A stretch of DNA of 64,000 nucleotides from positions 20,345 to 84,344 of the forward strand of contig CP129470.1 in the NCBI GenBank assembly GCA_030583685.1, given 5' to 3'. The notes beneath the pieces are model-generated. The model was not told where the DNA came from and made no database searches. It saw only the letters and a program-made list of their open reading frames with translations. Of the stretch, positions 5,560-43,495 are shown in pieces. The stretch comes from Candidatus Dojkabacteria bacterium (GTDB taxonomy: Bacteria > Patescibacteriota > Dojkabacteria > GCA-002793355). The translations under genes and the position numbers were made by a program. Numbering within the stretch: the first letter of the stretch is position 1; every line of letters starts with the position of its first letter.

Positions 5560-6165
5560 TCAGTTATATGAAATAACACTTTTCACCACTCCTTCTATGG
5601 TTAGGTCTTCCTCTTGTACAACTCTGATTGGCGGATATTTCGGATTAAATGAGGTAAGAATGATTCCCTCATTCGTTATGTGATATTGTTTAATGAGCAC
5701 TTTGGATTTATGAACACCAACGATAACAGATCCCGAATCAGCGCCAGGCTGCATTTTTGCGACGACTAAATCCCGCTCTCGTATTTTTGGCTCCATGGAA
5801 TCACCTTTGGCTGCAACAATAAACACCTGTTCTAAAGGAAACGTTACGAGTTTTCTTGCAAACGGAATTCGGTCAATGGGGCTTCCATCTAACAATGTCC
5901 CGTTTGGTCCACATTGAGCCATTCCATAAATATTTACATAGCCAATATCACTTTCTTTTGGATCAGAAATAATTTTGTAGTCGCGAGGGTCAGCGGGATT
6001 ACGCACGAGATACCCCTTTTTCTCTAACTGCTTGAGGTGATGCGCAACAACGCTTGTTGAAGAAATGGATAATCTTTCCTGAAGTTCACGTATTGTCAAG
6101 GGTTCGGCCTGATTTTTCAGAAGTAATTCGAGTAATTCTTGTTGTTTAATATGTAGTTTGTTCAT
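5560..6165 (-). CDS. lexA: LexA repressor (S24 peptidase, SOS regulator). Likely start is the internal Met (MNKLHIKQQ), not the ORF's first Met
   Basis: N-terminal wHTH (LTIRELQERLSISSTSVVAHHLKQLEKKGYLVR). Cleavage-site region and catalytic Ser in VAAKGDSMEP; Lys in the downstream KSKVLIKQYH region. Confidence 0.85.
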   Translation of the reverse strand: MNKLHIKQQELLELLLKNQAEPLTIRELQERLSISSTSVVAHHLKQLEKKGYLVRNPADPRDYKIISDPKESDIGYVNIYGMAQCGPNGTLLDGSPIDRIPFARKLVTFPLEQVFIVAAKGDSMEPKIRERDLVVAKMQPGADSGSVIVGVHKSKVLIKQYHITNEGIILTSFNPKYPPIRVVQEEDLTIEGVVKSVISYN

Positions 6166-16791: not shown

Positions 16792-16843
16792 CCCGCGACT
16801 TCACTTGTATAAGTACACTGTTTTCTAGTATAATTCTGCAAGT

Positions 16844-16926
16844 GCCGGGGTGGTGGAATGGCAGACACGCTACCTTGAGGTGGTAGTGCCCGTAAGGGTG
16901 TGGAGGTTCGACTCCTCTTCCCGGCA
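16844..16926 (+). tRNA. tRNA-Leu (anticodon GAG) with long variable arm
   Basis: Acceptor GCCGGGG/CCCGGCA pairing, anticodon loop TTGAGGT, long extra arm GCCCGTAAGGGTGT, T-loop GGTTCGACTCC. Confidence 0.85.
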
Positions 16927-16942
16927 TATCTCGATTTTCAAT

Positions 16943-17017
16943 CGGGGCGTAGTTCAGTTGGCTAGAACGCACGGTTTGGGACCGTGAGGTCGCGAGTTCG
17001 AGTCCCGCCGCCCCGAT
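16943..17017 (+). tRNA. tRNA-Pro (anticodon TGG)
   Basis: Acceptor CGGGGCG/CGCCCCG, D-arm GTTCAGTTGGCTAGAAC, anticodon stem-loop CACGG-TTTGGGA-CCGTG, T-loop TTCGAGT; 17 nt after tRNA-Leu. Confidence 0.85.
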
Positions 17018-17383: not shown

Positions 17384-17608
17384 TTGATGGATAAGAAAAG
17401 ATCCGATATCGGAAAGGCAATACAAAAAGTGAGGTTAGATAAGGGATTGACTCAAGAGGAATTATCTCGCAAGGCTGATATTCCATATACAACTCTTGCG
17501 AAAATCGAAAGCGGAATGGTTGTAAATCCTAGATTTAAAACCCTTCAAAAAATTGCAACTGCTTTGGAAGTTACAATTGATTATTTAATTAAGTTAGATG
17601 GTAAATAA
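17384..17608 (+). CDS. XRE/Cro-C1-family HTH transcriptional regulator (putative controller of the downstream R-M operon)
   Basis: LTQEELSRKADIPYTTLAKIESG HTH_3 motif; 74 aa; stop overlaps the hsdM start. Confidence 0.75.
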   Translation: MMDKKRSDIGKAIQKVRLDKGLTQEELSRKADIPYTTLAKIESGMVVNPRFKTLQKIATALEVTIDYLIKLDGK

Positions 17609-19358
17609 CATGGCAAAATCAAATCTACATTCAATTATTAGCTTTATTTGGTCTGTAGCAGATGATGTTCTGAGAGATCACTATAAAAAAGGTGAATATC
17701 CAAATGTAATTTTACCAATGACAGTAATAAGAAGAATTGACCTTTCTCTCGATGATACAAAAGCTGATGTCGTAAAGGCATACGAAGACTACAAAGACAA
17801 AATTATTAATCCTCAAGGTCTTCTTGAAAGTGCTTCAAAAAAGAAATACTACAACTACTCGAAATACACTCTTAAAACCCTTTTAAACGAACCAAAAAAC
17901 CTGAAAGAGAATACTCTTTCGTATTTAAACAGCTATTCCGATAATGTAAAAGACATCATCGAAAAGTTTGAGCTTAAGAATATTGTTGAAAAATGCAGTC
18001 GAGATGGAATACTTTTCTCATTAATTGAGAAGTTTGCAGATCCAAAAGTAGCTATTTCCCCTACCGAATTATCAAATCATGAAATGGGACATGTATTTGA
18101 AGATTTAATAAGGCGATTTAACGAAGAAAATAATGAGGAGGCAGGGGAACACTTCACTCCAAGAGAAGTTATTAAACTGATGAATCGAATTGTCTTTGAT
18201 CCTGTTAAAGACAAAATTAAGGATATCGGAACTATTCTTGTATATGATCCTGCATGTGGAACTGGTGGTATGCTTTCAGAATCCAAAGAATATCTGAAGG
18301 ACATTCTTAAATATGATGGTTTTATTCACTTATTTGGTCAAGAAGTAAATGATAAAACATATGCAACTTGTAAAGCAGACCTGCTTATTAAAGGTGAAGA
18401 TCCCGATGGTGTAGCTTTTGGTTCAACATTATCAAATGATGGTTTTCCTGATAAGAAGTTTGATTTTATGCTTACAAATCCTCCATATGGAAAAACTTGG
18501 AAAGACGATCAAAAGAAGCTATTAGTTGGCGATGGGAAGAAGAAACAAATTGTTGATAGTAGGTTTCAAATTGGTATCCCAAGAGTTTCCGATGGACAAC
18601 TATTGTTTGTCGAGCATATGCTTTCCAAAATGAAAACTGATACAGAACTAGGATCAAGAATAGCCTCTGTTCATAATGGCTCAGCTCTCTTTACTGGTGA
18701 TGCAGGACAAGGAGAAAGTGAGATTAGAAAATATTTGTTTGAAAATGATCTAATTGACGCAATTATTGCGCTCCATTCAGATATGTTTTACAACACAGGA
18801 ATACCGACTTATATCTTGTTAATAACTAACAAAAAGCATGAAAAAAGAGTAGGTAAAATTCAACTAATCAATGCTACATCAGAGGAATTTTATACAAACC
18901 TTAAAAAGACTTTAGGCCAAAAAAGAGTTGAAATTACGGATGCACAGATAAATAAAATCTATGAGATTTATACTAAATTTGAAAATTCTGAATTTTCAAA
19001 AATATTTTCTAATAAAGAGTTCGGATATACGCAAATAAAGGTGCACCAACCGAAGAAAGATGAAAAAGGAAATATTATTAGAAAGAAAATGGGAGGTGTC
19101 GAAATTGATAAAAGCTTAGAGGATATTGAAAATATCCCATTGAAAATGGATATTGATACATTCTTTAATGAAGAGGTTAAAAAATATTATCCTGATGCTT
19201 GGTATGAACCTGATGAATCAAAAATTGGATATGAAATAAACTTTAATAAATACTTTTATAAGTTTACTCCGCCTAGATCATCAGATGTAATTTTAAATGA
19301 GTTGAGAATACTTGATAAAGAAACAGACTCATTACTTAAGGAATTACTTAAAGATTAA
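17598..19358 (+). CDS. hsdM: Type I restriction-modification system N6-adenine DNA methyltransferase subunit
   Basis: Motif I (DPACGTGGML), catalytic motif IV NPPYG (MLTNPPYGKTW), N-terminal HsdM_N helical domain. Confidence 0.9.
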   Translation: MVNNMAKSNLHSIISFIWSVADDVLRDHYKKGEYPNVILPMTVIRRIDLSLDDTKADVVKAYEDYKDKIINPQGLLESASKKKYYNYSKYTLKTLLNEPKNLKENTLSYLNSYSDNVKDIIEKFELKNIVEKCSRDGILFSLIEKFADPKVAISPTELSNHEMGHVFEDLIRRFNEENNEEAGEHFTPREVIKLMNRIVFDPVKDKIKDIGTILVYDPACGTGGMLSESKEYLKDILKYDGFIHLFGQEVNDKTYATCKADLLIKGEDPDGVAFGSTLSNDGFPDKKFDFMLTNPPYGKTWKDDQKKLLVGDGKKKQIVDSRFQIGIPRVSDGQLLFVEHMLSKMKTDTELGSRIASVHNGSALFTGDAGQGESEIRKYLFENDLIDAIIALHSDMFYNTGIPTYILLITNKKHEKRVGKIQLINATSEEFYTNLKKTLGQKRVEITDAQINKIYEIYTKFENSEFSKIFSNKEFGYTQIKVHQPKKDEKGNIIRKKMGGVEIDKSLEDIENIPLKMDIDTFFNEEVKKYYPDAWYEPDESKIGYEINFNKYFYKFTPPRSSDVILNELRILDKETDSLLKELLKD

Positions 19359-20698
19359 TGAAAAAGTATAATAATTACAAGCAAACATTCGTGGATTGGA
19401 TTGGAGAGATACCAGAGCAATGGAAAGTAAAACCACTTATGGCTGTATTACAACAACGTAATGAAAAAAATGATCCTGTAAAAACAGAGCAGATTCTTTC
19501 GCTTTCAATCGCAGATGGTGTAACACTATATTCTCATATTGGTAGAGGAGGTAACAAGTCTAAAGGTGATTTGACTGCTTACAAGATAGCTCATGAGGGG
19601 GATATTGTTATGAATAGTATGAATGTTATTGTCGGAGCTGTAGGTCTCTCTAGATATTTTGGAGCAATTAGTCCAGTATATTATGCACTGTTCCCTAAAG
19701 ATGATTCGGTGGAAATTAAATTTTATGAGAATATCTTTAAAAGCAAAGCTTTTCAGAAATTTCTTATGGTATATGGCAAGGGTATACTTATCAAGAAAAG
19801 TGCCTCAGGAAAATTAAATACAATTAGAATGAAGGTCTCTTCAACCGATCTTAGGCGAACACTCCTACCAGTACCTGCGTACATAGAACAAGTAGCAATA
19901 GGACAAGCCCTTGATGAAGCCAACCGCAAGATTGATAAAGTAGTTGAAGGAAAACGTCAGTATATTAACCTCCTTAAAGAATATAAACAGTCAAAAATTA
20001 ATGAATTAGTAACAAAAGGTCTGAACCCAAATGTAAAGATGAAGGATAGTGGGATTGAGTGGTTAGGAGAAATTCCTGAACATTGGGACACCCTGAGACT
20101 CAAAACAATAATTAGTACTTCAAAAAATGGTATTTGGGGTGAAGATGTTAATCAAAATAAACACAATTATCCATGTATTAGAGTTGCAGATTTTGATTAT
20201 ACCCATTACTGTGTAAAAGATGAAATTCTAACATTACGTTCTTATGCTGACAAAGATATTGTGTATCTTATTGAAGAACCGTCTGTATTAATTGAGAAAT
20301 CTGGCGGAGGTGAAAAAATGCCTGTAGGAAGAATTGTTTATTATAACTCTTCAAAACCTTGCATGTGTTCCAATTTTATTTCAAGAATTAAAGTTAAAGA
20401 AGAAAAGGTGTTATTACAATATTTTGTATATTTTATGAGTGTTTTATATTCCAAGAGAGTAATTACAAAATCAATTAAGGCTACTACAGGCATTCAGAAC
20501 ATTGACGAGTATAGTCTTTTTGCCGAAAAAATACTTATACCTCCTGTAAATGAACAGTCTCAAATAGTTAACATAATTAAATCTGTTATTGGTAAATATG
20601 ATCAATTAGTTGAAAAAGCAGAGAAACAGATAGAATTAATTCAACAATATCGCCAATCACTAATATATGAATTAGTAACTGGTAAAAGAAAACCTTAA
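19358..20698 (+). CDS. hsdS: Type I restriction-modification system specificity subunit (two target-recognition domains)
   Basis: Two repeated TRD halves, each followed by a conserved coiled-coil spacer (LIELIQQYRQSLIYELVTGK at the C-terminus; similar central repeat). Start ATGA overlaps the hsdM stop. Confidence 0.8.
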   Translation: MKKYNNYKQTFVDWIGEIPEQWKVKPLMAVLQQRNEKNDPVKTEQILSLSIADGVTLYSHIGRGGNKSKGDLTAYKIAHEGDIVMNSMNVIVGAVGLSRYFGAISPVYYALFPKDDSVEIKFYENIFKSKAFQKFLMVYGKGILIKKSASGKLNTIRMKVSSTDLRRTLLPVPAYIEQVAIGQALDEANRKIDKVVEGKRQYINLLKEYKQSKINELVTKGLNPNVKMKDSGIEWLGEIPEHWDTLRLKTIISTSKNGIWGEDVNQNKHNYPCIRVADFDYTHYCVKDEILTLRSYADKDIVYLIEEPSVLIEKSGGGEKMPVGRIVYYNSSKPCMCSNFISRIKVKEEKVLLQYFVYFMSVLYSKRVITKSIKATTGIQNIDEYSLFAEKILIPPVNEQSQIVNIIKSVIGKYDQLVEKAEKQIELIQQYRQSLIYELVTGKRKP

Positions 20699-20715
20699 AT
20701 TATGAAATAATCAAT

Positions 20716-23697
20716 ATGAACGATCAAAACAATACATTAAATAAAAAAGAATCAGGGTTTGAAGATATTATTTTTGAATTTTTGACTCAATCACAATCTC
20801 CAAAGTATCGTGCAAGAGTAGATTCTGATTATGATAAAGCTAATTGTATTGATTTTGGTCTGCTTATTGAGTTTTTACAACAAACTCAACCTGAAAAGCT
20901 AGAAAAACTAAAGAATATTCACAAAGAACTGTTTGAACGAAATTTTTCCTATCGATTAAACCAACAGGTAAAACTTAAAGGTGTAATTGAAGTCTTAAGA
21001 AAAGGAATTGAAGATATGGGCGTACAATTTACTCTAATGTATCCTCACCCATCTTCCTCAAAGAATCCAAATTCTCAAGAACAATATGATCAAAACATAA
21101 CATCAATAATTAGGCAGGTACATTTTAGCCAACAATCAAATGAGTCTGTAGATTTAGTTCTTTTTGTTAATGGAATACCTGTATTAACTATTGAACTAAA
21201 GAACCCATTATCAGGACAGACTTATCAAGACGCCATATGGCAGTATAGAAATGATCGCTCACCAAAGGAAGAACTCTTTTCATTTACAAGATGTATGGTG
21301 CATTTTGCAATGGATAGTGAGCAGGTCTTTATGTGTACCAAATTAGATGGTGAAAAATCTGTGTTCTTGCCTTTCAATAAAGGAAATAACGAACAAGCAG
21401 GAAACCCTGATAACCCGAATGGTTATAGAACTTCATATATGTGGGAAGAAATATTCCAAAAGGATTCATTAATCAACATTATTGAAAGTTTTGCAAGTAA
21501 AGTGGTTGAGAAAGACGAGGATACAGGGAAAGAGAAAGTTAAACAAATTTTTCCAAGATATCACCAATTGAATTGTGTGAGAAATCTATTAACAGATGCT
21601 AAACAAAATGGTACTGGAAAAAGGTATTTAATTCAGCACTCAGCAGGTTCAGGAAAAAGTAATTCAATTACATGGTTAGCTCATCAATTGGTAGAGCTTC
21701 ATGATTCTACAAACGAGAACACTATTTTTGACAGCGTTATCGTTGTTACTGACAGAAAAGTCCTTGATCAACAGATTAGAAATAACATTAAACAATTTGC
21801 ACATGTAGATGGAGTTGTTGAGGCGATTACAGAAGGAAGTCAACATCTAAGAACTGCGTTAGAATCAGGTAAAAAAGTAATAATTACAACTGTTCAGAAA
21901 TTTCCTTATATTGTAAATGATATTGGGCAACTTCCTTCAAAGAAATTTGCATTGATTATTGATGAGGCTCATTCTTCTCAATCAGGGGAAACTTCAAGAA
22001 ATATTAGCATGACATTGGCTGATAAATCTTCTTTAGGGTATAACGAAGACCAACCTAAGAAAGATTTTGAAGATGAGCTTAATGAAATGGTAGTAAACAA
22101 AAAACTACTTCCAAATGCGAGTTATTTTGCCTTTACAGCAACTCCAAAAAATAAAACATTAGAACTATTTGGTGTTAAACAAACTGATGGCTCTTATAAA
22201 GCCTACCATGTGTATTCTATGCAACAAGCAATTCAAGAGAAATTTATTCTCGATGTTTTGCTTAACTATACGACATATCACACATATTACAGTTTGATTA
22301 AAAAGGTTGAAACAGATCCTGAATACGACAAAAAGGAAGCAAAAAAGATTATCTACAAATTTTTGCAATCTAACCCCGATACAATCGAAAAGAAAGCAAG
22401 AATTATGTTAGATCATTTCAGAAATAATTCTTTATACAAAATTGGAGGAAACGCTAAAGCTATGGTTGTCGCAGGTAGTCGTAAGAACGCAGTTGAATAT
22501 TATTATGCTTTCAATAAGGTATGTGAAGAATTGAATCTTCCTTTTAAGTCAATTGTAGCCTTTACAGGTGAAATAGATGGTTTAACAGAAGATAAGATTA
22601 ACGGATTTAGCATATCTTTGAGATCCGTTAAGAAGAAATTAGAAAATGAAAATACCTATAAATTCTTGATTGTTGCAGAAAAGTTTCAGACAGGATTCGA
22701 TGAACCCCTACTACACTCTATGTATGTAGATAGAATTCTTGCAGGAGTAACCGCAGTTCAAACCCTATCAAGATTGAATCGTGTTATGCCACCTCAAAAA
22801 ACAGATACTTTTGTACTAGATTTTGTTAATACTCACGAAGATATACAAACAGCATTTGAACCTTACTATAAAACAACTGTACTATCTGAAGGAACAGATC
22901 CCAATAAGCTTTTTGACCTCAAAGATGCGATTAAAGGATTCCAAATATTCACAGATGAGGAAGTTACTTCATATGTTATGAAATGTTTAGAAAAAAGATC
23001 CGTAGTTGAACTACACCCCATTATTGATAAAGCAGTTGAGAGATTTACTATTCTTGATGAAGAACATAAGTATGACTTGAAAGCGAAAGTAAAATCATTC
23101 ATTCGACTTTATGCTTATATTTCTCAAATAGCACCTTTTGAAAGTGTAGAACTAGAAAAGCTTTACATTTATCTTTCAGACCTTAATAAAAAACTTGTAA
23201 TAGATGTTAAAAAAGACCCTATTGACGATCTAATTAATGCGATAGACCTCGATTCAATCAGGGTTCAAAAAGAAACAGATGGTTCTATTGGGTTAAAGGG
23301 TGATGAACAGCTTCAACCAAACCCTTCAATAATGAGAGGGGGAAAGTTAAATGAAGAAAAAGACAGATTATCAAGGATTCTAGAGGAAATGAACGAGAGA
23401 TTCGGAGGAATTGATTTTAGCGATGGAGATAAAGTAAGAAAAACCTTTGGTGAGATTGCAGATGATGTTAGAAATGATCCTACATTTATGAAAGCAACGC
23501 TAAATGCCGATAGGCAAAATTCTTGGATAACATTTGAAAAACTCCTAAATGAAAAGTTCCAAAATATGATCAATGTGAACTTTAGTTTGTATAAAAAATA
23601 TTCTGACGATCCTGAGTTTAAAAAGTTTATGGCTGATAGATTGTTTGAGATGGTTTGGGGGCAGTCTAGCTCACAAGGGAGGGAAAGAAATAGTTAA
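20716..23697 (+). CDS. hsdR: Type I restriction enzyme R subunit (SF2 helicase/translocase plus N-terminal PD-(D/E)xK nuclease)
   Basis: Walker A HSAGSGKSNS, DEAH box LIIDEAHSSQ, helicase motifs III-VI (TATP, QTGFDEP, QTLSRLNR); N-terminal nuclease region with D...ELK pattern. Confidence 0.9.
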   Translation: MNDQNNTLNKKESGFEDIIFEFLTQSQSPKYRARVDSDYDKANCIDFGLLIEFLQQTQPEKLEKLKNIHKELFERNFSYRLNQQVKLKGVIEVLRKGIEDMGVQFTLMYPHPSSSKNPNSQEQYDQNITSIIRQVHFSQQSNESVDLVLFVNGIPVLTIELKNPLSGQTYQDAIWQYRNDRSPKEELFSFTRCMVHFAMDSEQVFMCTKLDGEKSVFLPFNKGNNEQAGNPDNPNGYRTSYMWEEIFQKDSLINIIESFASKVVEKDEDTGKEKVKQIFPRYHQLNCVRNLLTDAKQNGTGKRYLIQHSAGSGKSNSITWLAHQLVELHDSTNENTIFDSVIVVTDRKVLDQQIRNNIKQFAHVDGVVEAITEGSQHLRTALESGKKVIITTVQKFPYIVNDIGQLPSKKFALIIDEAHSSQSGETSRNISMTLADKSSLGYNEDQPKKDFEDELNEMVVNKKLLPNASYFAFTATPKNKTLELFGVKQTDGSYKAYHVYSMQQAIQEKFILDVLLNYTTYHTYYSLIKKVETDPEYDKKEAKKIIYKFLQSNPDTIEKKARIMLDHFRNNSLYKIGGNAKAMVVAGSRKNAVEYYYAFNKVCEELNLPFKSIVAFTGEIDGLTEDKINGFSISLRSVKKKLENENTYKFLIVAEKFQTGFDEPLLHSMYVDRILAGVTAVQTLSRLNRVMPPQKTDTFVLDFVNTHEDIQTAFEPYYKTTVLSEGTDPNKLFDLKDAIKGFQIFTDEEVTSYVMKCLEKRSVVELHPIIDKAVERFTILDEEHKYDLKAKVKSFIRLYAYISQIAPFESVELEKLYIYLSDLNKKLVIDVKKDPIDDLINAIDLDSIRVQKETDGSIGLKGDEQLQPNPSIMRGGKLNEEKDRLSRILEEMNERFGGIDFSDGDKVRKTFGEIADDVRNDPTFMKATLNADRQNSWITFEKLLNEKFQNMINVNFSLYKKYSDDPEFKKFMADRLFEMVWGQSSSQGRERNS

Positions 23698-23708
23698 TTA
23701 TTCTTATT

Positions 23709-26459
23709 ATGACAAAATACACAAGAGGTTCGGAATGGAGAAAGTGGGATTTACATATCCATACTCCATTCACAAAACTTAATGATCAATACAAAGTAAA
23801 TCAAGGGGAAGATGTATGGGATAAATACTGTGAGACAATAAAAAAGTCAGATGTAGAAGTCATCGGAATAACTGATTACTTTTCAATTGATAATTATTTA
23901 CTCTTTCTTGACAAATTTAAGAACAAGTACCCAAATAGTAACAAAAGATTTTTCCCTAACATTGAACTGCGATTAGAAGTTAGTGTCAATTCAACAAATG
24001 AAGAAGTAAATATCCATATAATATTCTCAAATAAGGTCAAGGAAAAAAAGATTAAAGATTTCCTAAGTAAACTTGAAACTAATAGAACAAAAAGCGGAGC
24101 CAATATTTTTTGTTCGGATCTTTCTTCGGAAGAGGATTACAAAAAGGCATGTATTGATTATAAAAAACTGAAGCCTACATTAAAAAAAGTATTTGGTAAT
24201 AATGAGTGCTACTTAATCGTTGCACCTGTAAACAATCAAGGATTACGACCAGATTCAAATTCTCCTCGTAAACTAATTACTTCAGACGAAATTGACAAGA
24301 TATGTGATTGCTTTTTTGGTAACAGTTCAAATGTCGACTACTTCTTAGATACTCAAAGATATGAGGCAGATAGTGATGGAAAGAAAGAGTTTTCCAAATC
24401 ATGTCCTGTTGTAACAGGGTCAGACGCACATTCGTTTGAGGATTTAGAGCTTAAGTTAGGCAAAAACTACCTAAAGAAAGATTCACAAGACAAAATATGT
24501 GATTCCTCAGAAATAACATGGATAAAAGCAAATCCTACATTCAATGGGTTAAAACAGATATTATATGAACCAATTGAAAGAGTAAAAATCCAAGAATTGA
24601 GACCCGATGACAAAGAAGACTACCAATTGATTGATAGTGTAAGCTTCATTGATGATAAGTTTACTAATCAATCCATATTACTTAGTAAAAACTTAACTGC
24701 AATTATTGGTGGTAAATCCACTGGTAAATCAATATTGCTTAGAAATATTGCAAAAACGATTGATCCTGATGAAGTCGCAAAGCGTTTGAATGAAGTTTCA
24801 ATGGAGGATTATGATAAACCGATTAATGACTTTAATGTTCTTTGGAATGATTCTCAAAATTTTTCTAAAGGGACAACTTCACAAACTCACAAGAAAATAA
24901 TCTACATTCCTCAATCTTACTTAAATAGATTAATTGATAAAAAAGAAGATAGATCAGCTATTGATGAAATCATTAAGAATGTATTGAATCAACAAGTGGA
25001 AGTTCAACAAGCTTTTGATGGCCTAAAAAAACGAACTAGAGAGATTGAACAATCAATATCTTCAAAAATTGAGCAGTTGTTTTTTACTATTAAAGACTTA
25101 TCAACTATAAAGGAAAAAATAAAAGAGATAGGAGATAAGAAAGGAATTGATACAGAAATTGAAAAACTGAAGATTGAAATCAATGAATTAAAAAAGGTCT
25201 CGAGCTTGTCCAAAACAGATTTGGAAGACTTTGATAAATACACAACTTCTTTAAAATCATTAAATATCAAAGCTTCTCAGATTGAGTATGATATAGATAG
25301 CTTAACGAAAGCTAAGGAAACAGTTCCTTTTGTATTTCCATTACTCGAGAATGTATCAAGCGACATTGCTGATACTTTAAGGGAAACATTTAATAACATA
25401 AAAGTTGAATTAGAACAAAAATATAATCAGGCTTTAGAAACAGAGTTAGGTAAAGCCAATAAGTCACAAGTTGCTACTAAAAAAGAAATTCTTGATATAT
25501 CTTCTAAAATTTTACCAATTCAGAAAAGGATTTCTGAATCGAAGGCTTTAGATGAAAAGATTAGAAAATTAACAGCAGAAGAAGAGAAATTAAAACTCAT
25601 TTCAGAACAAGAAATTAATTTTGAAAAAGTGAGGAAACTATTTGATAACATTATCGAAGAGTTAGTAAATACTCATCAAGATTATTATTCTGAAATCTTT
25701 AAAGCAAAGAATTTAATATTACAACAAAATATTATTAATGGAGAGCTTGAGTTTGATATAAATATTACATTTAAGAATGATAGCTTCCAAAAGCTATTTA
25801 TTGATGAGGTTTGTAATTTAAGAACTTTGACCCAATTTAACGAAGTTGAATTGAACAGTTATCAATTCAAAGATAGTGTTAAATTTAAGGATGAGGTAAA
25901 AAAGATTGTCTTAGGTTTTCTAAAAAAACATATACAATTAAAAAATAATTATACCCAAGCAGATGCAATAAGAAAGCTATTGCAGAATTGGTACATTTTT
26001 GACTTTAAGATAAAACAAAATGGTGATGATTTATCTACAATGTCGCCCGGGAAAAAGTCGTTTGTATTACTAAAACTATTAATCGAACTTGATAATAGCA
26101 AGTGTCCAATCCTATTAGACCAGCCAGAAGATGATCTAGATAATCGGTCAATATATTTTGATTTGGTTAGATTCATTAAAAGCAAGAAAAAAGAACGACA
26201 AATCATCATTGCTACGCATAATCCGAATTTAGTTGTTGGTGCTGATGCTGAGTGCGTTATTGTCGCAAATCAGGAAGGTATAGAAACTAAAAATCGCACA
26301 TATCAGTTTGAATATGTTCAAGGAAGTTTGGAATTCTCACAAAAAATTAAACCAAACCAACCAATACTATATAGTCGAGGTATTCAAGAACATGTTTGTG
26401 ATATTCTCGAAGGTGGACGAGAAGCTTTTGAGAATAGAAAAAATAAATATCATATTTAA
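23709..26459 (+). CDS. Fusion protein: N-terminal PHP-family phosphoesterase domain plus SMC/ABC-type ATPase (Walker A, long coiled-coil insert, Walker B/D-loop/H-loop). Candidate anti-phage effector
   Basis: PHP motifs WDLHIHT (HxH), IGITDY, NIELRLE, NIHIIF in the first roughly 110 aa; Walker A AIIGGKSTGKS about residue 330; roughly 350 aa of heptad-rich K/E/L sequence; C-terminal ILLDQPEDDLD (Walker B) and IIIATHNPNL (H-loop). Confidence 0.6.
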   Translation: MTKYTRGSEWRKWDLHIHTPFTKLNDQYKVNQGEDVWDKYCETIKKSDVEVIGITDYFSIDNYLLFLDKFKNKYPNSNKRFFPNIELRLEVSVNSTNEEVNIHIIFSNKVKEKKIKDFLSKLETNRTKSGANIFCSDLSSEEDYKKACIDYKKLKPTLKKVFGNNECYLIVAPVNNQGLRPDSNSPRKLITSDEIDKICDCFFGNSSNVDYFLDTQRYEADSDGKKEFSKSCPVVTGSDAHSFEDLELKLGKNYLKKDSQDKICDSSEITWIKANPTFNGLKQILYEPIERVKIQELRPDDKEDYQLIDSVSFIDDKFTNQSILLSKNLTAIIGGKSTGKSILLRNIAKTIDPDEVAKRLNEVSMEDYDKPINDFNVLWNDSQNFSKGTTSQTHKKIIYIPQSYLNRLIDKKEDRSAIDEIIKNVLNQQVEVQQAFDGLKKRTREIEQSISSKIEQLFFTIKDLSTIKEKIKEIGDKKGIDTEIEKLKIEINELKKVSSLSKTDLEDFDKYTTSLKSLNIKASQIEYDIDSLTKAKETVPFVFPLLENVSSDIADTLRETFNNIKVELEQKYNQALETELGKANKSQVATKKEILDISSKILPIQKRISESKALDEKIRKLTAEEEKLKLISEQEINFEKVRKLFDNIIEELVNTHQDYYSEIFKAKNLILQQNIINGELEFDINITFKNDSFQKLFIDEVCNLRTLTQFNEVELNSYQFKDSVKFKDEVKKIVLGFLKKHIQLKNNYTQADAIRKLLQNWYIFDFKIKQNGDDLSTMSPGKKSFVLLKLLIELDNSKCPILLDQPEDDLDNRSIYFDLVRFIKSKKKERQIIIATHNPNLVVGADAECVIVANQEGIETKNRTYQFEYVQGSLEFSQKIKPNQPILYSRGIQEHVCDILEGGREAFENRKNKYHI

Positions 26460-26471
26460 AAAGTCAATCTT

Positions 26472-27650
26472 ATGGTTAAATTCATACCAAAATTTAAAGA
26501 TCGTAGTCTATTAGACACAAACTGTAATGAGTTTATTGTTGACGCAGATGTAACAATTAAGAACAAGAATAGCTTTCAAGAGATAGCTACTCAAATCCCT
26601 AATTATGTTATAAACCCAGTTACTAGTCGATTTCCATATAGCTCAACAAAAACTAGTGAAAAATTGCCATATTTTTTTAGCAAAAATGAATTTGCTAAAA
26701 TTCTTTCGAATTCCTCAGAGAGACTTAAAAAGTTAATAATTCCTTGTGTTAAATTTTTACTAGAAACAAATTCCAAGAATGTAATACCCCCATATTTTTA
26801 TGCAGAAGACATTACATCTCAGACCTTTAATGTTAATCTTGAAAATATTGCAAATGTTATAAAGTTTAAGGAAAAAGAAAATGTTCAATTTAGTATCTAT
26901 CCAGTCATAAATGTTTCTTCAAATATTCTTACTAATGATAATTCTATTAGATATGTCGCCTCTATGTATATGTCTGATGAATATTACGAAAATATCTCTG
27001 GTTACTATATATTGATTGATGAGTTTGATGCAAATAAAGCAGATCCTTCAACATTAATTGGGTATTTAAAATTAATCAAAGCACTTTCCAAAAAGGAAGT
27101 ACACTTATTGAATATTAATTCATTCGGATACATTGGACTTTTAGCTGGTGCAACTAGCTTTTCTAGTGGATTAGCTAGTGGTGAAAGTAGCTCTGTAAAT
27201 AATTGGATTAGTGATGATAATCAAAATGCTCCAAGACAAAGACCTCCAAAGTTTATTTATGTACCCGAAATATTCTCATATATTGACGAAATAGAATTAC
27301 AGAAAGCAAATTACACTTGTAATTGCTCACATTGTAATGGGACTCTCCCAAGTACTACTATTTCAAAGAAAAAACATTTTCTTGCATGTAGACAAAGAGA
27401 TATCAAAAATAACTTCTCAGGCGAGTTTGATTCAGATTTATTAGCCTGGGAAAATGTCTTTTCGGAAGCCTTGTCGTATGCTAACAATTTATTAAGTTTG
27501 AAAAAAACAACACGATCATATAGCACATTAGTAACTCCGATTAATAAATGGAATAGTATCTTACCAGTTCTAAAAGACTTAAAAAGTTTAGAAGAAAATG
27601 AAGATCTATTAGCCCAAATTCTAAATGAAATTGATGAAACTAATGATTAG
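26472..27650 (+). CDS. Hypothetical 392-aa protein with a CxCxxC...H putative zinc site; partner of the PHP-ATPase
   Basis: Starts 12 nt after the upstream stop; motif CNCSHCNG...KKKHFLAC near residue 285; no other recognisable motif. Confidence 0.4.
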   Translation: MVKFIPKFKDRSLLDTNCNEFIVDADVTIKNKNSFQEIATQIPNYVINPVTSRFPYSSTKTSEKLPYFFSKNEFAKILSNSSERLKKLIIPCVKFLLETNSKNVIPPYFYAEDITSQTFNVNLENIANVIKFKEKENVQFSIYPVINVSSNILTNDNSIRYVASMYMSDEYYENISGYYILIDEFDANKADPSTLIGYLKLIKALSKKEVHLLNINSFGYIGLLAGATSFSSGLASGESSSVNNWISDDNQNAPRQRPPKFIYVPEIFSYIDEIELQKANYTCNCSHCNGTLPSTTISKKKHFLACRQRDIKNNFSGEFDSDLLAWENVFSEALSYANNLLSLKKTTRSYSTLVTPINKWNSILPVLKDLKSLEENEDLLAQILNEIDETND

Positions 27651-28083
27651 AATTGTCATTGATACAAATGTTGCATTATCGGGACTTCTTAGCTATACAT
27701 CTCCTGAACGCATGATAATTAATTATGCAATGCAAAAAAGAATTTCATTGATAGGTTCAAGAGAAACGTTTTCAGAATTCAAAGAAAAGGTTCTAGAAAA
27801 CAAACGATTTATCAAAGTAGCTAAGGATTTAATGTTTCCACAAAATCAGATCCTATCCCAATACAAGGCGTTAGTTAAGTTTGTTGAAATTGAGCAATCA
27901 TTAAAAGAATTACATTTTTGTGAACAAGATCCCGACGATGACATGTTTTTGCATGTAGCAATTCAATCTGGCACTAATATTCTAATAACAAACGATAATC
28001 ATCTCAGAAAATTAAAGAAAATCAATGAAATAAGAATAATTACACCAACAAAGTTCTTAGAAGTTATTAGAAAGCACTTTTAA
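27625..28083 (+). CDS. PIN-domain protein (predicted RNase/nuclease). Probable true start at the MIRIV Met around 27643, overlapping the upstream stop
   Basis: IRIVIDTNVALSGLL (Asp1), later acidic residues (E..D..ITNDNHL), length about 145 aa, typical of VapC-like PIN. Confidence 0.65.
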   Translation: MKLMKLMIRIVIDTNVALSGLLSYTSPERMIINYAMQKRISLIGSRETFSEFKEKVLENKRFIKVAKDLMFPQNQILSQYKALVKFVEIEQSLKELHFCEQDPDDDMFLHVAIQSGTNILITNDNHLRKLKKINEIRIITPTKFLEVIRKHF

Positions 28084-38944: not shown

Positions 38945-39406
38945 TTATTTTCTCACTTTAATTTCCTTACCGTTTTCTGCACCAGGTGCTGCGACTTCAA
39001 CTCGCTGACCTGAAGTTTGACAGATTGTATAGCCTGTGTTTGCTTCAGTTCCACCATTTGGGTCCATCGGAATGGCTGCAATATACTCATCAACTAGGAG
39101 GGTATACAGGTTAATTGTTCCTGCGGGTGGTGTTCCCGTGGTAACTGCACTAATTGGTGCTGGAGTTGCATCACACAGGGGGATTGTTCCGAATGCTGCA
39201 AGTGTATTTCCTGGCTCAGAAGTGTATTGCACAACAGCATTGAGAATTTGTTGAACATCAGCACTTCGCTGAGTATTTCTGGTATCAGCAAAGTTCTTTG
39301 CTGGGTTAATCGCGACGATTGTGATTGCAGCTAAAATGGCAATCAAACCGACGACGACTAAAATTTCAATAAGGGTAAACCCCTTAAGTGTCGCCTTTTT
39401 TTGCAT
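38945..39406 (-). CDS. pilA: Type IV major pilin (type IVa-like prepilin)
   Basis: MQKKATLKGFTLIEILVVVGLIAILAAI: leader ending in G, F+1, E+5, hydrophobic alpha1; 153 aa; own terminator. Confidence 0.85.
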   Translation of the reverse strand: MQKKATLKGFTLIEILVVVGLIAILAAITIVAINPAKNFADTRNTQRSADVQQILNAVVQYTSEPGNTLAAFGTIPLCDATPAPISAVTTGTPPAGTINLYTLLVDEYIAAIPMDPNGGTEANTGYTICQTSGQRVEVAAPGAENGKEIKVRK

Positions 39407-39574
39407 GGGACAGGTTTATTTAACTTATACCTATAGGTAGTATAGAGCAGATTGAAGTGAAAATGCAAGTCATTCACCGGTACACGCCTTACTCATGCAA
39501 TACTTAATACTGTCTTCTTGCAGTGGGACAACAAATGCTATAGAAAAGTGAACTCTTTGGCTATATAATGTATT

Positions 39575-41245
39575 ATGCATACAGAACAAATACTGAAAGA
39601 GACATTGGGGTTAACCGATTATCAAACTCTCGTTTATCTCTCGCTTATTGAGAAATCCGCTACCGCAGGACAGCTGTTTCGACGGTTGAATATTAATCGT
39701 GCAACACTTTATCGAATTCTTGAAGAATTAGTCACGCTGAGCTTAGCAATACGAAAACAAATCAAATCGCGAATGTACTTTGAGGCGCTTCATCCAGACG
39801 CATTAATGGATTTGTACGAGAAACGAAGAATCTCATACGAAGAAAAGGGAAGACTGCTTGAGCGAACAGTTCATGAGCTACTTCACAAAGCGCAGTCACA
39901 ACCACTCGATGCGTCAATCACCATTGAGAAAGGAATCTCTGCACATTACAAAAAAATGAGACTGAAAATGTCCTGTAAAGAAAAAATTATTAGGATGAAA
40001 GTAAATAATGATTCAAATATTTACGATTACACTGAATACCCCGAAGGAAAAGATTATCTGTCTTTTTTATCAAAATTCACCAAACACTGCGCTGAAAATG
40101 ATATTTTCACGAAACTCCTAGTTCACACCAATCTTTCGACATCAATGCGAGATGTTAATATCTCAAATCCATTTGAACTAAAAGAATCACGAATTTTACC
40201 AGCTGAAATACTTCCTACCGTAAGTTTTGAAGTATTTGATGACTACACAATCTTCACCGTACGAAACGATAAACCTGAAGAAATGGTCGTTATTACAATT
40301 CGGAACCAAATTACCGCAGATCTCATGAAATCTCTTTATGACTTTATTTTTGAAAGAAGCATTCAAACCTATAAAGATAGCCCCGTTCCCACCTTTAAAA
40401 CCAACGGAAATGCCAATCTACCGTTGATTGGCATTGGTACCTCAGGAATTGGAGGCTACTGGTACGGTGCGAACCCCTATGTTGATGACACCAGTGATGT
40501 TGATAAACTTCGTCACGCTATGAGTAAAGGTATACGCTATATTGATGCCTGTTTGATGTATGCTGACGGGCACGCGGTAGAATTGATTGCCAAAGCGATT
40601 AAGAATATCGCAAGGAGCGATCTTTTTATTAATGGAAAACTGACACGTGTTGGAGGTATCCCACTCAAAAACGCACGAGAAATAGCGGAACAGTGCGATC
40701 AGTACCTGAAAAAACTTGGAATTGATTACCTTGACCAGTTTCAAATTCACAGCTTGCGAACATTAGGAGATGTCCCTCAGGAAGAGGCAATTGAGCAAAT
40801 TGGAAACCTCATTACTGCGGGAAAAGTACGGTACTGGGGCGTGAGTAACTATGACATGGAAAATCTGAAAATTGCGATGTCTGTTATTAAAGAACCAATT
40901 CATTCAAACGAAATTCCTTTTGGTGTATTCGCCAGAGAGTATGAAAAGAATGGAACACTCGACTTTATGAGAACGCATGGAATTACCACAATTGCTTACT
41001 TCACTGTAAAAAAAGGTGGAATGCTTGTTGATACCTTTTTTAATTCAGATGAAGATTCTATTCTCCAGCAATTAGCTAAAAAGTACCAAAAAACTCCGAC
41101 ACAAATTGCTATTAATTGGGTCACTCACCATCCACGTACTATGGCGGTTATAAAAGCGACCAACGGAACACACATCAACGAAAATGTTGCTGCAGTGGGG
41201 TGGAAAATGGAGGAAGCGGACTATCGAGCAATAGGGGAAACGTGA
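39575..41245 (+). CDS. Fusion of TrmB-like wHTH transcriptional regulator (N-terminus) with aldo/keto reductase (C-terminus)
   Basis: N-terminal LTDYQTLVYLSLIEKSATAGQLFRRLNINRATLYRILEEL (TrmB-type HTH). C-terminal AKR motifs IGIGTSGIGG, YIDACLMYADGH (catalytic Y/D region), K, WGVSNY. Confidence 0.7.
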   Translation: MHTEQILKETLGLTDYQTLVYLSLIEKSATAGQLFRRLNINRATLYRILEELVTLSLAIRKQIKSRMYFEALHPDALMDLYEKRRISYEEKGRLLERTVHELLHKAQSQPLDASITIEKGISAHYKKMRLKMSCKEKIIRMKVNNDSNIYDYTEYPEGKDYLSFLSKFTKHCAENDIFTKLLVHTNLSTSMRDVNISNPFELKESRILPAEILPTVSFEVFDDYTIFTVRNDKPEEMVVITIRNQITADLMKSLYDFIFERSIQTYKDSPVPTFKTNGNANLPLIGIGTSGIGGYWYGANPYVDDTSDVDKLRHAMSKGIRYIDACLMYADGHAVELIAKAIKNIARSDLFINGKLTRVGGIPLKNAREIAEQCDQYLKKLGIDYLDQFQIHSLRTLGDVPQEEAIEQIGNLITAGKVRYWGVSNYDMENLKIAMSVIKEPIHSNEIPFGVFAREYEKNGTLDFMRTHGITTIAYFTVKKGGMLVDTFFNSDEDSILQQLAKKYQKTPTQIAINWVTHHPRTMAVIKATNGTHINENVAAVGWKMEEADYRAIGET

Positions 41246-41257
41246 TTTACATAGAAA

Positions 41258-41965
41258 TTATGTTCGAAACATGTCTTTTATATACTGTGGTTGAAGAGCC
41301 AACAAGACAGGTACTCTATTTGTAGATTGCTGTATATTACTTGCCTTTTTCCGAATTTTCCCATGTGGATTTTCGTTTTGTATAATCTCCCATTTTACAA
41401 AACACTCCTGTAAGAAAGCACTTATTGCCTCAGAATTGGGAAACGAACTATAAAAACTCATAGTTTTATTCTCGAATTTCCTCGGAAGTGTTGTGCAGGA
41501 AAACGGTATAACGGCTCCATCAGTAAATTCAATCTGAAAATCAACCATGCTCTCTGACCGGTCAGCTGCGCTGCCTATTTGAATTTCTTTAACTGCACTA
41601 AGATTTGAGAAGTTCAAAATGACATAGGCTTGGCATGCCATTTTTTCTAGGAGGTTTCGAAATGGAACAATTTTCTCTTTAGGTGCTTTAGCTCTATTAA
41701 ATTCGATGATTTTAGCTCTAAAATACCTTCTTTCCTCTCGTCCCGATATCATTTTGTGTAAAATTGTCAGTTCAATGGTTCGTAATTCAGTCTGTCGTAA
41801 AACAACTTCCAAAGCAGGTATCTGCAAATATCGCTTATATAGTTTATCAATATCTTGTTGGTAAGGTTCAAACGAAAATTTGATTTTTTCTTTTTTTCCT
41901 GTCAAATATAACTCTCTTTCTCCCATATTACCGCGTATTATACCAAATTTGACCATTCTTTGCAC
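41258..41965 (-). CDS. Hypothetical protein
   Basis: 235-aa ORF, no motif recognised; good coding periodicity. Confidence 0.3.
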   Translation of the reverse strand: MQRMVKFGIIRGNMGERELYLTGKKEKIKFSFEPYQQDIDKLYKRYLQIPALEVVLRQTELRTIELTILHKMISGREERRYFRAKIIEFNRAKAPKEKIVPFRNLLEKMACQAYVILNFSNLSAVKEIQIGSAADRSESMVDFQIEFTDGAVIPFSCTTLPRKFENKTMSFYSSFPNSEAISAFLQECFVKWEIIQNENPHGKIRKKASNIQQSTNRVPVLLALQPQYIKDMFRT

Positions 41966-42007
41966 GTCTTATATACTTGTAAGACATAAACTGATTGCCC
42001 CGAACTC

Positions 42008-43495
42008 ATGCAAGAACAATATCTTTATCTTGGAAACGAAGAAGTATACAACGGCCAATATATGCTTACGGTCTTTAAATTGGTCCCCTATGGTGACATT
42101 AGTCTAGAAGATGTTGCTTCTGAAATCGCAGCAGAATCCTCGACTGGCTCAAACCTCAAGGTCGGAACAATGACACCATATTCCCAAGGAATTGACGCGA
42201 GAGTCTATAAAATTGATAAGGAGAAAAATCTTGCGTATATTGCATACCCCTGGAGCATGTTCGACCGAGTCGGAAATGTTCAGAATATTCTCACATTTAT
42301 CGCTGGAAATGTATTTGGTGTTTCAGAAGTTAAAGAATGCAAACTCCTTGATGTGTGGTTTCCTCCGCAAATGCTTTCTCAATACGATGGGCCATCAGTA
42401 ACCCTTGATGATATGCGTGATTACTTGCAGAATTATGATAGACCTGTTCTTGGAACAATCATCAAACCAAAGATTGGGTTAACGTCAACTGAGTACGCAG
42501 AAGTTTGTTACGATTATTGGGTTGGAGGGGGAGATTTCGTGAAAAACGATGAACCTCAAGCCGATCAAGTCTTTTCTCCATACGAAAAAATGGTAGTGTC
42601 GGTTCGTGAAGCAATGGATAGAGCAGAGGATGTCACTGGCCATACGAAAGTACACTCCTTCAACGTTTCCGCTGCAGACTTTGACACAATGCTGAAACGC
42701 GCAGAATATGTTGCATCTGTAATGAAACCGGGAAGTTATGCCTTCCTCGTTGATGGCATTACTGCAGGCTGGACTGCGGTACAAACGATTCGCCGTCACT
42801 TTCCGAATGTATTCCTCCATTTTCACCGCGCAGGACATGGGGCATTCACTCGACGAGAGAATCCAATTGGTTATTCAGTTCTTGTACTTTCCAAGTTCGC
42901 TCGTTTAGCTGGCGCTTCAGGAATCCACACAGGAACTGCAGGAATCGGTAAAATGGCAGGAGATGCAGTAGAGGACATCACTGCGGCACAAAATATTCTC
43001 AGACTGCGCGCAAAAGGAATCGCTTTTGACCAAACATGGAGTGAAATTCCAGAAACAGATTTAGACATCCAAGCAGCAATCAAGAAAGAGGAAGAATTGT
43101 GGTCACAGGGAGCGCAAGGGATTATGAAATCTCGCAGCGACGGACTCGATACCGTTCTTGAGAGAAAAACTTCATGGAGATTAATCAACAAAACTGCACC
43201 AATCATCTCAGGAGGGCTCAACCCTGTCTTGTTACCGCAATTTATTGATACGATTGGAACGATTGACTTTATTACCACCATGGGCGGAGGAGTTCATTCT
43301 CATCCAGACGGAACGACCAAAGGAACAATGGCGGTTGTACAAGCATTTGAAGCCTGGAAAAATGAAATTCCACTCGCAGAATATGCAAAAGATCACCCAG
43401 AGCTTGCAAAGGCAATTGAATACTACGACAAACACGGCACACAAGCACATCGAGCAGAAAACAAAGCTGTGTACAACAACGAAGAAGCAGTATAA
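42008..43495 (+). CDS. rbcL: Ribulose-1,5-bisphosphate carboxylase/oxygenase large subunit, form II/III (archaeal/CPR-type), catalytic residues intact
   Basis: GTIIKPKIGL (K175 region), GGGDFVKNDEPQ (carbamylated Lys plus D/E metal ligands), HFHRAGHG (H294/R295), GIHTGTAGIGKMAG (H327/K334), C-terminal GGGVHSHP. No small subunit in the window. Confidence 0.85.
   Translation: MQEQYLYLGNEEVYNGQYMLTVFKLVPYGDISLEDVASEIAAESSTGSNLKVGTMTPYSQGIDARVYKIDKEKNLAYIAYPWSMFDRVGNVQNILTFIAGNVFGVSEVKECKLLDVWFPPQMLSQYDGPSVTLDDMRDYLQNYDRPVLGTIIKPKIGLTSTEYAEVCYDYWVGGGDFVKNDEPQADQVFSPYEKMVVSVREAMDRAEDVTGHTKVHSFNVSAADFDTMLKRAEYVASVMKPGSYAFLVDGITAGWTAVQTIRRHFPNVFLHFHRAGHGAFTRRENPIGYSVLVLSKFARLAGASGIHTGTAGIGKMAGDAVEDITAAQNILRLRAKGIAFDQTWSEIPETDLDIQAAIKKEEELWSQGAQGIMKSRSDGLDTVLERKTSWRLINKTAPIISGGLNPVLLPQFIDTIGTIDFITTMGGGVHSHPDGTTKGTMAVVQAFEAWKNEIPLAEYAKDHPELAKAIEYYDKHGTQAHRAENKAVYNNEEAV

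Follow-up and report, generated by a model that had tools for sequence, protein, structure and literature searches.

A TrmBL2-type DNA-binding module fused to an aldo/keto reductase in Candidatus Dojkabacteria: a candidate one-component regulator

[quoted passage not shown] Rex senses NADH via a Rossmann fold, and MocR uses an aminotransferase fold. To our knowledge, none of these proteins uses a TrmB module or an aldo/keto reductase (AKR) barrel. Within the TrmB family itself, TrmBL2 represents a TrmB protein that lacks the C-terminal sugar-binding subdomain of ~70 residues, and six of the seven sugar contacts of TrmB come from this subdomain (PMC4158304). Here, we describe a gene that encodes a short TrmB module of the TrmBL2 type followed by an AKR, as delineated by its open reading frame (ORF), Pfam matches, and homologues. 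It lies at positions 39575–41245 (+ strand) of a 64,000-nucleotide stretch of contig CP129470.1 from a Candidatus Dojkabacteria bacterium; this whole stretch is referred to as the window. Judging from sequence and structure models, we give about even chances to the proposal that the fusion protein acts as a one-component regulator of the TrmB family with the AKR barrel as its sensor. Enzyme-derived sensors on DNA-binding proteins are already familiar, and it is the combination of TrmB with AKR that is new. Here, a family best known from Archaea occurs in bacteria, and an entire oxidoreductase stands in for its ligand-binding subdomain. Moreover, regulation is almost unstudied in Candidate Phyla Radiation (CPR) bacteria, which encode few recognisable regulators.

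The fusion gene consists of a single, ATG-initiated frame of 556 amino acids (aa). Its start is secure because the stop-to-stop reading frame opens just two codons upstream of the ATG and Met1 is invariant across the aligned homologues. Pfam profile PF01978 (TrmB) matched aa 7–74 with 37.3 bits (cutoff 25.6, E = 2.4e-9), and PF00248 (Aldo_ket_red) matched aa 285–553 with 146.8 bits (E = 9e-43), covering profile positions 2–286 of 291. An earlier note, written from the sequence alone, had read the gene as a TrmB-like helix-turn-helix (HTH) at the N-terminus fused in frame to a complete AKR. Both parts of this reading were borne out, the former by the above-cutoff TrmB match and the latter by the near-complete AKR profile, with an invariant catalytic tetrad, within one ORF. 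The two AKR motifs singled out in that note are likewise real: YIDACLMYADGH comprises aa 322–333 with the catalytic residues D324 and Y329, and WGVSNY comprises aa 421–426 with N425. In NCBIfam, all matches to DkgA/DkgB-type reductases stayed below threshold and no equivalog reached its cutoff; thus, no specific enzyme name can be assigned to the AKR half. The identical protein is present in NCBI on a contig of 888,748 bp. Both NCBI and UniProt label the fusion proteins simply as "aldo/keto reductase", which hides the regulator half from searches by name. The JGI names and precomputed Pfam annotations show both domains. Full-text literature searches returned no description of a TrmB–AKR or any HTH–AKR regulator.

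Assemblies from NCBI, ENA, JGI, and Logan contained 17 further full-length homologues with 50–68% identity over the whole length, and another homologue, P0020, showed 34–36% identity. PF01978 and PF00248 occur together in all of them. An exhaustive HMMER search with aa 1–284 added eight representatives of 50%-identity clusters, which have a length of 517–572 aa and are 27–32% identical to the N-terminal half; the seven representatives that were scanned for domains all proved to be TrmB–AKR fusions. Taken together with P0020, these more divergent proteins share ~23–32% identity in the N-terminal half. One protein, P0134, is probably truncated at its N-terminus. All named sources of the fusion belong to Candidatus Dojkabacteria, including that of the divergent protein P0128 (UniProt A0A955L515).

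This distribution bears on the possibility that a sequencing frameshift or a chimeric assembly has joined two adjacent genes. We rejected this explanation, to which we assign a negligible probability, because the same single-ORF layout with a gap-free junction was found in ~27 distinct sequences, drawn from four data sources and from assemblies that are independent of each other. Nothing in the window speaks for an artefact. The observation that comes closest is a single pair of proteins in the cluster of P0127, namely P0389 (182 aa) and P0392 (375 aa), which are encoded on one ENA contig of 10,143 bp. The break between them falls inside the phospholipase-D (PLD)-fold domain described below, not at a domain boundary, and seven mates of the same cluster are intact with 564 aa. 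We conclude that the pair is a sequencing frameshift or a pseudogene. A hidden Markov model (HMM) of the N-terminal module, run against all ORFs within ±4 kb of stand-alone AKR genes, detected no TrmB-module gene at any of 79 loci, and against the ORFs of 80 metagenome loci it matched only inside fusion genes. The fusion therefore withstands the frameshift objection raised in the earlier note, and a two-gene version in relatives, which the note had also considered, did not appear at the 79 stand-alone loci; the one broken gene found elsewhere is split within a domain.

The N-terminal part of the protein starts with the wHTH (aa 7–74; 39593–39796, + strand), assigned by PF01978, the invariant Y46, and the alignment to TrmBL2. 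It is followed by a long helix of 34 residues (aa 75–108; 39797–39898, +) in the AlphaFold models, which is presumed, by analogy with the TrmB family, to form a coiled coil for dimerisation. An α/β domain of the phospholipase-D/Nuc fold (aa 111–262; 39905–40360, +) was recognised by profile and Foldseek matches and has no Pfam hit. As the middle segment alone returned nothing significant from Pfam, its identity was taken from profile-to-PDB and fold searches. A profile of the N-terminal module aligned end to end with the TrmBL2 crystal structures (profile positions 6–257 on chain residues 10–263, E = 1.2e-8). The AlphaFold model of the module (predicted local distance difference test score of 90.6) gave TrmBL2 as the top Foldseek match (E = 1e-13), and further matches were NucT, Nuc, Zucchini, and PLD3, all of the phospholipase-D/Nuc fold, followed by the TrmB sugar-binding domain 2F5T. 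Furthermore, hundreds of stand-alone proteins of ~250–270 aa, many of the named ones from DPANN archaea, cover aa ~7–265 of the fusion end to end and terminate exactly where the AKR starts. From the profile match, the fold matches, and the stand-alone relatives ending at the junction, we conclude that residues 1–262, by sequence and model, are a complete short TrmB protein of the TrmBL2 type, composed of winged helix, helix, and PLD-fold domain. The earlier note had described ~250 residues of linker or sensor-like sequence behind the HTH; the stretch in fact measures ~190 aa and is the remainder of the TrmBL2-type protein.

The DNA-recognition tyrosine of TrmB and TrmBL2 is Y50 (PMC4158304). 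Y46 of the fusion is invariant in both alignments of homologues, A1 and A2, and aligns with the TrmBL2 tyrosine in the profile alignment; all 38 members of A2 match PF01978. The PLD-fold domain corresponds to the C-terminal domain of TrmBL2 and to the subdomain that comes first in the effector-binding domain of TrmB. No HKD catalytic motif was visible in it on reading the sequence, although no formal test was made. The sugar-binding subdomain (PF11495) was detected neither in the whole fusion protein nor in the middle segment, and the AKR barrel starts precisely at the position that this subdomain occupies in TrmB. The two halves are linked by a short connector, RS-x5-7-P-x-P (aa 263–272; 40361–40390, +), which was defined from the homologue alignments and contains the invariant P270. 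In these alignments, the junction has a fixed length of ~10 residues and no gaps.

Two other arrangements of the short TrmB module were encountered. In P0149, P0153, P0156, P0157, P0161, P0189, P0198, P0258, and others, the module was matched in two to four stretches; these proteins of ~380, ~515, ~650, ~790, and 926 aa look like tandem arrays of the module, and P0149 gave a single Pfam TrmB match despite several module stretches. At locus L169 (3285–4902), a stand-alone short TrmB of 263 aa is 30% identical to the N-terminal module of the adjacent fusion (E = 1e-25). The coding sequence of this short TrmB shares 14 nt with a gene for a shikimate-dehydrogenase-like NAD(P) oxidoreductase, and the pair is located directly upstream of the fusion gene. 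This single case is suggestive, as here a TrmB module is again paired, in unfused form, with an oxidoreductase that depends on NAD(P).

The C-terminal half of the fusion (aa 273–556; 40391–41242, +) is an (α/β)8 AKR barrel according to Pfam, PDB match, and alignments, and it appears as alternating strand and helix in the full-length model. Its best solved match is a 275-aa AKR of the Tm1743 type from Thermotoga maritima (5DAN/6KIK, E = 7e-52). The barrel is complete, since the match spans residues 10–273 of that chain. For comparison, 17 fused and 74 stand-alone AKR domains were aligned. The catalytic tetrad D324/Y329/K355/H392 is present in every one of these domains, fused or not, and is also invariant across the 18 close and 8 distant fused proteins. 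The fused domains have likewise kept the C-terminal cofactor motif K527..H533..E536-N537: H533 is invariant in all 17 of them, as is N425, and K527, E536, and N537 vary little or not at all. Because of the invariant tetrad, the AKR domain probably still turns over substrate.

Two positions in the pocket distinguish the fused from the stand-alone domains. Residue 446, which we take to be the equivalent of Q183 of AKR1B1, the glutamine to which the nicotinamide carboxamide is hydrogen-bonded in canonical AKRs, is Glu in all 17 fused domains versus Gln in 67 of the 74 stand-alone ones. At residue 326, which lies between D324 and Y329, the fused set has Cys (13 domains) or Ser (4 domains), versus Ala in 73 of 74 stand-alone domains. 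In terms of motifs, "DTAExY" is shifted to "D-x-[CS]-x-x-Y" and NQ to [NH]E. At the level of sequence, both changes suggest that the barrel was adapted after the fusion. Since no fused protein has retained the canonical Gln or an unaltered "DTAE" motif, the barrel could also be taken for a pseudo-enzyme, which would be a structural or oligomerisation domain sensing no ligand. We regard this as very improbable, as the tetrad and the K..H..EN motif are invariant or nearly so among domains that share only ~37–45% identity, and a structural role does not predict such conservation.

The fused AKR domains are 37–66% identical to that of the window, whereas no stand-alone relative exceeds 34.5%. Since the fused domains are closer to each other than to stand-alone AKRs, the sequences fit a single old fusion that subsequently diverged under selective constraint. 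Mean pairwise identities among the 17 close proteins were 65% for the wHTH, 49% for the helix, 54% for the PLD-fold domain, and 59% for the AKR. Thus, all parts of the protein are under purifying selection. Scans of species-representative genomes and of metagenomes recovered mostly free-standing AKRs of 265–315 aa from Patescibacteria, Nitrososphaeria, Thermococci, and others. The search patterns of both scans fell into the AKR C-terminus, which accounts for the predominance of stand-alone AKRs and for only two further fusion loci. One of the AKR matches, at L058 (4001–4879) from Ca. Woesearchaeota, lies in a frame that is open for another 418 codons upstream, resulting in a 729-aa ORF from the first start codon. 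It may represent a different N-terminal fusion; the TrmB-module HMM gave no match at this locus.

Upstream of the fusion gene, promoter scoring revealed a sigma-70-like promoter, TAGAAA-17-TATAAT (10 of 12 positions; 39541–39569, +), which ends 5 nt before the ATG. The upstream regions were compared at six Dojkabacteria loci, namely the window (39541–39577), L001, L002, L005, and L006 (each at ~5970–6003), and L087 (~670–700). Direct reading identified a -10-like hexamer 5–6 nt before the fusion ATG at all six and a Shine-Dalgarno sequence at none. Because the hexamer is so close to the ATG and a Shine-Dalgarno sequence is missing, the fusion mRNA is probably leaderless or near-leaderless.

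The same six loci share a conserved element, TGTCTTC-N9-GACAAC, just 5' of the -35 region (39511–39532, +), which we consider a candidate operator. Its position is fixed at -64 to -43 relative to the ATG. The exact pattern TCTTC-N9-GACAAC was found in five distinct loci plus the window, with L001 deviating by one base (GACAAA). Apart from one stray match, the exact pattern occurs only at the fusion position in 166 loci, and it occurs once in the 64-kb window. The element resolves into the dyad TGTCTT-N8-AAGACA, which is perfect in L001 and L005 and complementary at five of six positions in L087. L002 and L005 have kept the element although another gene, oriented in the same direction, precedes the fusion gene there; the element is therefore to be assigned to the fusion gene rather than to the promoter of the pilin gene that adjoins this gene in the window. 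Relaxed searches found no copy of element or dyad at the pilin and RuBisCO promoters. Judged by its sequence, the conserved dyad suggests autoregulation by a dimeric winged-helix protein. Locus L004, which carries the most divergent fusion gene, has a perfect palindrome of 18 bp, TAGTAGTATATACTACTA (5892–5909), ending 16 nt upstream of the -35 region of a sigma-70-like promoter with 11 of 12 positions. This palindrome differs from the dyad and is located at an analogous position. The TACT/AGTA in its half-sites recalls archaeal TrmB operators.

The occurrence of the sole conserved candidate operator at the promoter of the fusion gene itself, with none elsewhere in the window or L001, would also be in line with a protein that is an enzyme in the first place. 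It would reduce carbonyls or sugars rather than control other genes, and its TrmB module would only provide feedback on its own synthesis, as in trigger or autoregulated enzymes such as BirA and PutA. The invariant tetrad, the invariance of most cofactor-motif residues, and the somewhat better conservation of the AKR half as compared to the PLD-fold half point in the same direction. The best-conserved part of the protein is, however, the wHTH, and the two fusion-specific pocket changes suggest a barrel that was adapted after the fusion. We consider this alternative rather unlikely as stated, although it overlaps heavily with the one-component proposal and differs from it mainly in emphasis.

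A further alternative starts from TrmBL2, the closest solved relative over the entire N-terminal module, which is a chromosomal protein and global repressor (PMC4158304). The fusion might accordingly be a nucleoid-associated coat that covers DNA irrespective of its sequence and has a tethered reductase, serving as a DNA-localised detoxifier of reactive carbonyls or as a compaction factor that depends on the cofactor state. This would agree with the absence of PF11495 and with the lack of a regulon motif in the searches made. Identity to TrmBL2 amounts to just ~14–15%, however, and the dyad in the promoter region of the gene itself, being conserved in position, speaks for specific binding; we regard this explanation as unlikely. 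A more speculative variant, by analogy with the Kv-beta proteins discussed below, would be a slowly turning over "redox memory", in which reactive carbonyls or the reducing power of the cell determine the oxidation state of the NAD(P)(H) that is bound, and this oxidation state switches a TrmBL2-like protein between DNA-coating and released forms. It appears distinctly unlikely to us. If true, it would mean metabolic-state-dependent global control of nucleoid structure and gene expression in minimal-genome CPR bacteria, with targets that could include nucleotide-salvage genes such as those for RuBisCO II/III and NDK.

To return to the one-component proposal, the fusion unites a sensor-type domain and a DNA-binding domain, that is, input and output, in one polypeptide. 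A one-component or moonlighting role, as suggested in the earlier note, is reasonable because the fusion is conserved, the HTH passes the TrmB profile, and the AKR is complete with an invariant tetrad. In the mechanism we propose, the AKR barrel takes the place of the sugar-contacting subdomain and would be held there by the rigid connector of ~10 residues. The state of the AKR pocket, which may be defined by whether NAD(P)H or NAD(P)+ is bound, by a carbonyl substrate, or by both of these, would change the packing of the barrel on the PLD-fold domain. Via the dimerisation helix, the new packing would be relayed to the winged helices and affect their binding to DNA. Most likely, the dimer would bind the conserved dyad upstream of its own leaderless promoter, resulting in autoregulation. 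As in trigger enzymes, catalysis may be linked to sensing. Of these elements, we infer the DNA binding at the dyad, the identity of the ligand, and the allosteric coupling.

Several observations weigh against this mechanism. The dyad is imperfect in the window itself, where four of six positions are complementary, and relaxed searches with element and dyad showed no enrichment elsewhere in the window or in L001. Another factor might just as well bind there. TrmBL2, the closest solved relative, is a chromatin protein that binds DNA largely without regard to sequence and for which no ligand is known (PMC4158304). The invariant tetrad would be expected of a plain enzyme as much as of a sensor, and the exchange of Gln for Glu, at the position that binds the nicotinamide, might impair cofactor binding rather than tune it. 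Finally, the domain packing in the full-length model is moderately confident, with a predicted template-modelling score of 0.70. Glu446, Cys/Ser326, and the short conserved dyad offer directly testable handles.

In the window, the fusion gene is flanked by a divergent gene for a type IV pilin with an N_methyl motif (38945–39406, - strand; gene call and Pfam), followed by T2SSE and T2SSF genes. The spacer between the pilin and fusion genes is 168 bp. On the 3' side follow a minus-strand ORF of 235 aa, the gene for a form II/III RuBisCO (42008–43495, +; gene call and Pfam), and mgsA. Five distinct Dojkabacteria contexts (window, L001, L002/L003, L005, and L006/L007) have pilus genes, fusion, RuBisCO, and mgsA in this order, with zero to three genes inserted on either side of the fusion. 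In the five contexts, given enough flank, RuBisCO lies 0.07–2.2 kb downstream of the fusion, and the gap in L001 is 66 bp. None of the four divergent fusion loci L004, L167, L168, and L169 has a pilin or RuBisCO neighbour; thus, the association with both is lineage synteny only. The earlier note had rightly described the divergent arrangement with a shared spacer, while the regulatory link to the pilin gene that it implied did not hold: the conserved element stays with the fusion gene, the pilin promoter carries no copy of it, and the divergent fusions occur without a pilin neighbour.

Genes of nucleotide metabolism were found near divergent fusions: a thymidylate kinase gene and two NDK genes at L167 (2513–4390), an NDK gene beside the fusion at L169 (7046–7516), and a gene of the adenosine-specific-kinase family at L004 (1651–2160). 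Form II/III RuBisCO has a function in nucleoside salvage (PMC5113843). The recurrence of nucleotide-metabolism genes parallels the salvage RuBisCO and is a weak lead, which may be coincidence. A convergent ORF of 223–259 aa without a match to any family occupies the slot between fusion and RuBisCO in the window (41258–41965, -), L002 (7674–8453), L005 (7677–8348), and L006 (7673–8347), and L001 has no ORF in this slot. The ORF of the window had no match in Pfam, NCBIfam, or PHROG and no detectable homology to the slot ORFs of the other loci, among which only those of L005 and L006 match each other (30%). It was therefore rejected as a conserved partner of the fusion. The slot ORF is either fast-evolving or replaced.

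Three further features of the region were noted. A conserved C-rich element, CCTGTCCC, adjoins the ATG of the pilin gene (39407–39418) where a ribosome-binding site of the GGAGG type is expected. Likewise, CTGCCC is located 6–12 nt before the RuBisCO ATG (41985–42007 in the window; also L001, L002, L005, and L006), at the expected place of a GGAGG-type ribosome-binding site, and the RuBisCO upstream regions share a conserved TTGAC-N17-TATACT promoter. Farther upstream in the window, a stretch of ~10 kb with low GC content (17598–28083; ~30% vs. ~41%) begins right after the genes for tRNA-Leu and tRNA-Pro (16843–17017). It encodes the type I restriction-modification proteins HsdM, HsdS, and HsdR, a 916-aa ABC/AAA_21-like ATPase, a 392-aa protein without Pfam hit, and a PIN-domain toxin, and is probably a horizontally acquired defence island.

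Among proteins of known structure, TrmBL2 from Pyrococcus and Thermococcus (PDB 5BPD, 5BOX, 5BPI, and 5BQT) resembles the fusion in its ~260-aa arrangement of winged helix, long helix, and PLD-fold domain, in the conserved recognition tyrosine, and in the lack of the sugar-binding subdomain. It differs in that it ends where the AKR begins, and in being an abundant archaeal protein of low sequence identity. The sugar-sensing TrmB and TrmBL1 proteins of the Thermococcales (PDB 2F5T and 3QPH), which are one-component regulators, share with the fusion a PLD-fold subdomain followed by a second subdomain, which contacts the ligand in TrmB (PMC4158304). In TrmB, this second subdomain is a β-barrel of ~70–90 aa that binds maltose, sucrose, or glucose (PF11495), whereas in the fusion it is a TIM-barrel oxidoreductase of 284 aa. 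Tm1743-type and other stand-alone AKRs agree with the fusion in barrel length, catalytic tetrad, and the C-terminal K..H..EN motif, but they are free-standing, lack a DNA-binding module, and have no TrmB gene nearby. A parallel in mechanism is provided by the Kv-beta/Hyperkinetic proteins (AKR6), AKRs with an intact catalytic site in which the oxidation state of bound NADP(H) controls the Kv1 channel partner (PMC12043502). In contrast to the fusion, these proteins are eukaryotic and are bound non-covalently to an ion channel, and the NCBIfam Kv_beta profile matched the fusion only weakly (E = 5e-9, far below cutoff); the analogy is thus one of mechanism, not of membership. If the AKR indeed gates DNA binding, the fusion would be the first known transcription factor with an AKR barrel as its sensor and a prokaryotic counterpart of the Kv-beta principle, as well as a compact natural part that couples the NAD(P)H/carbonyl status to transcription.

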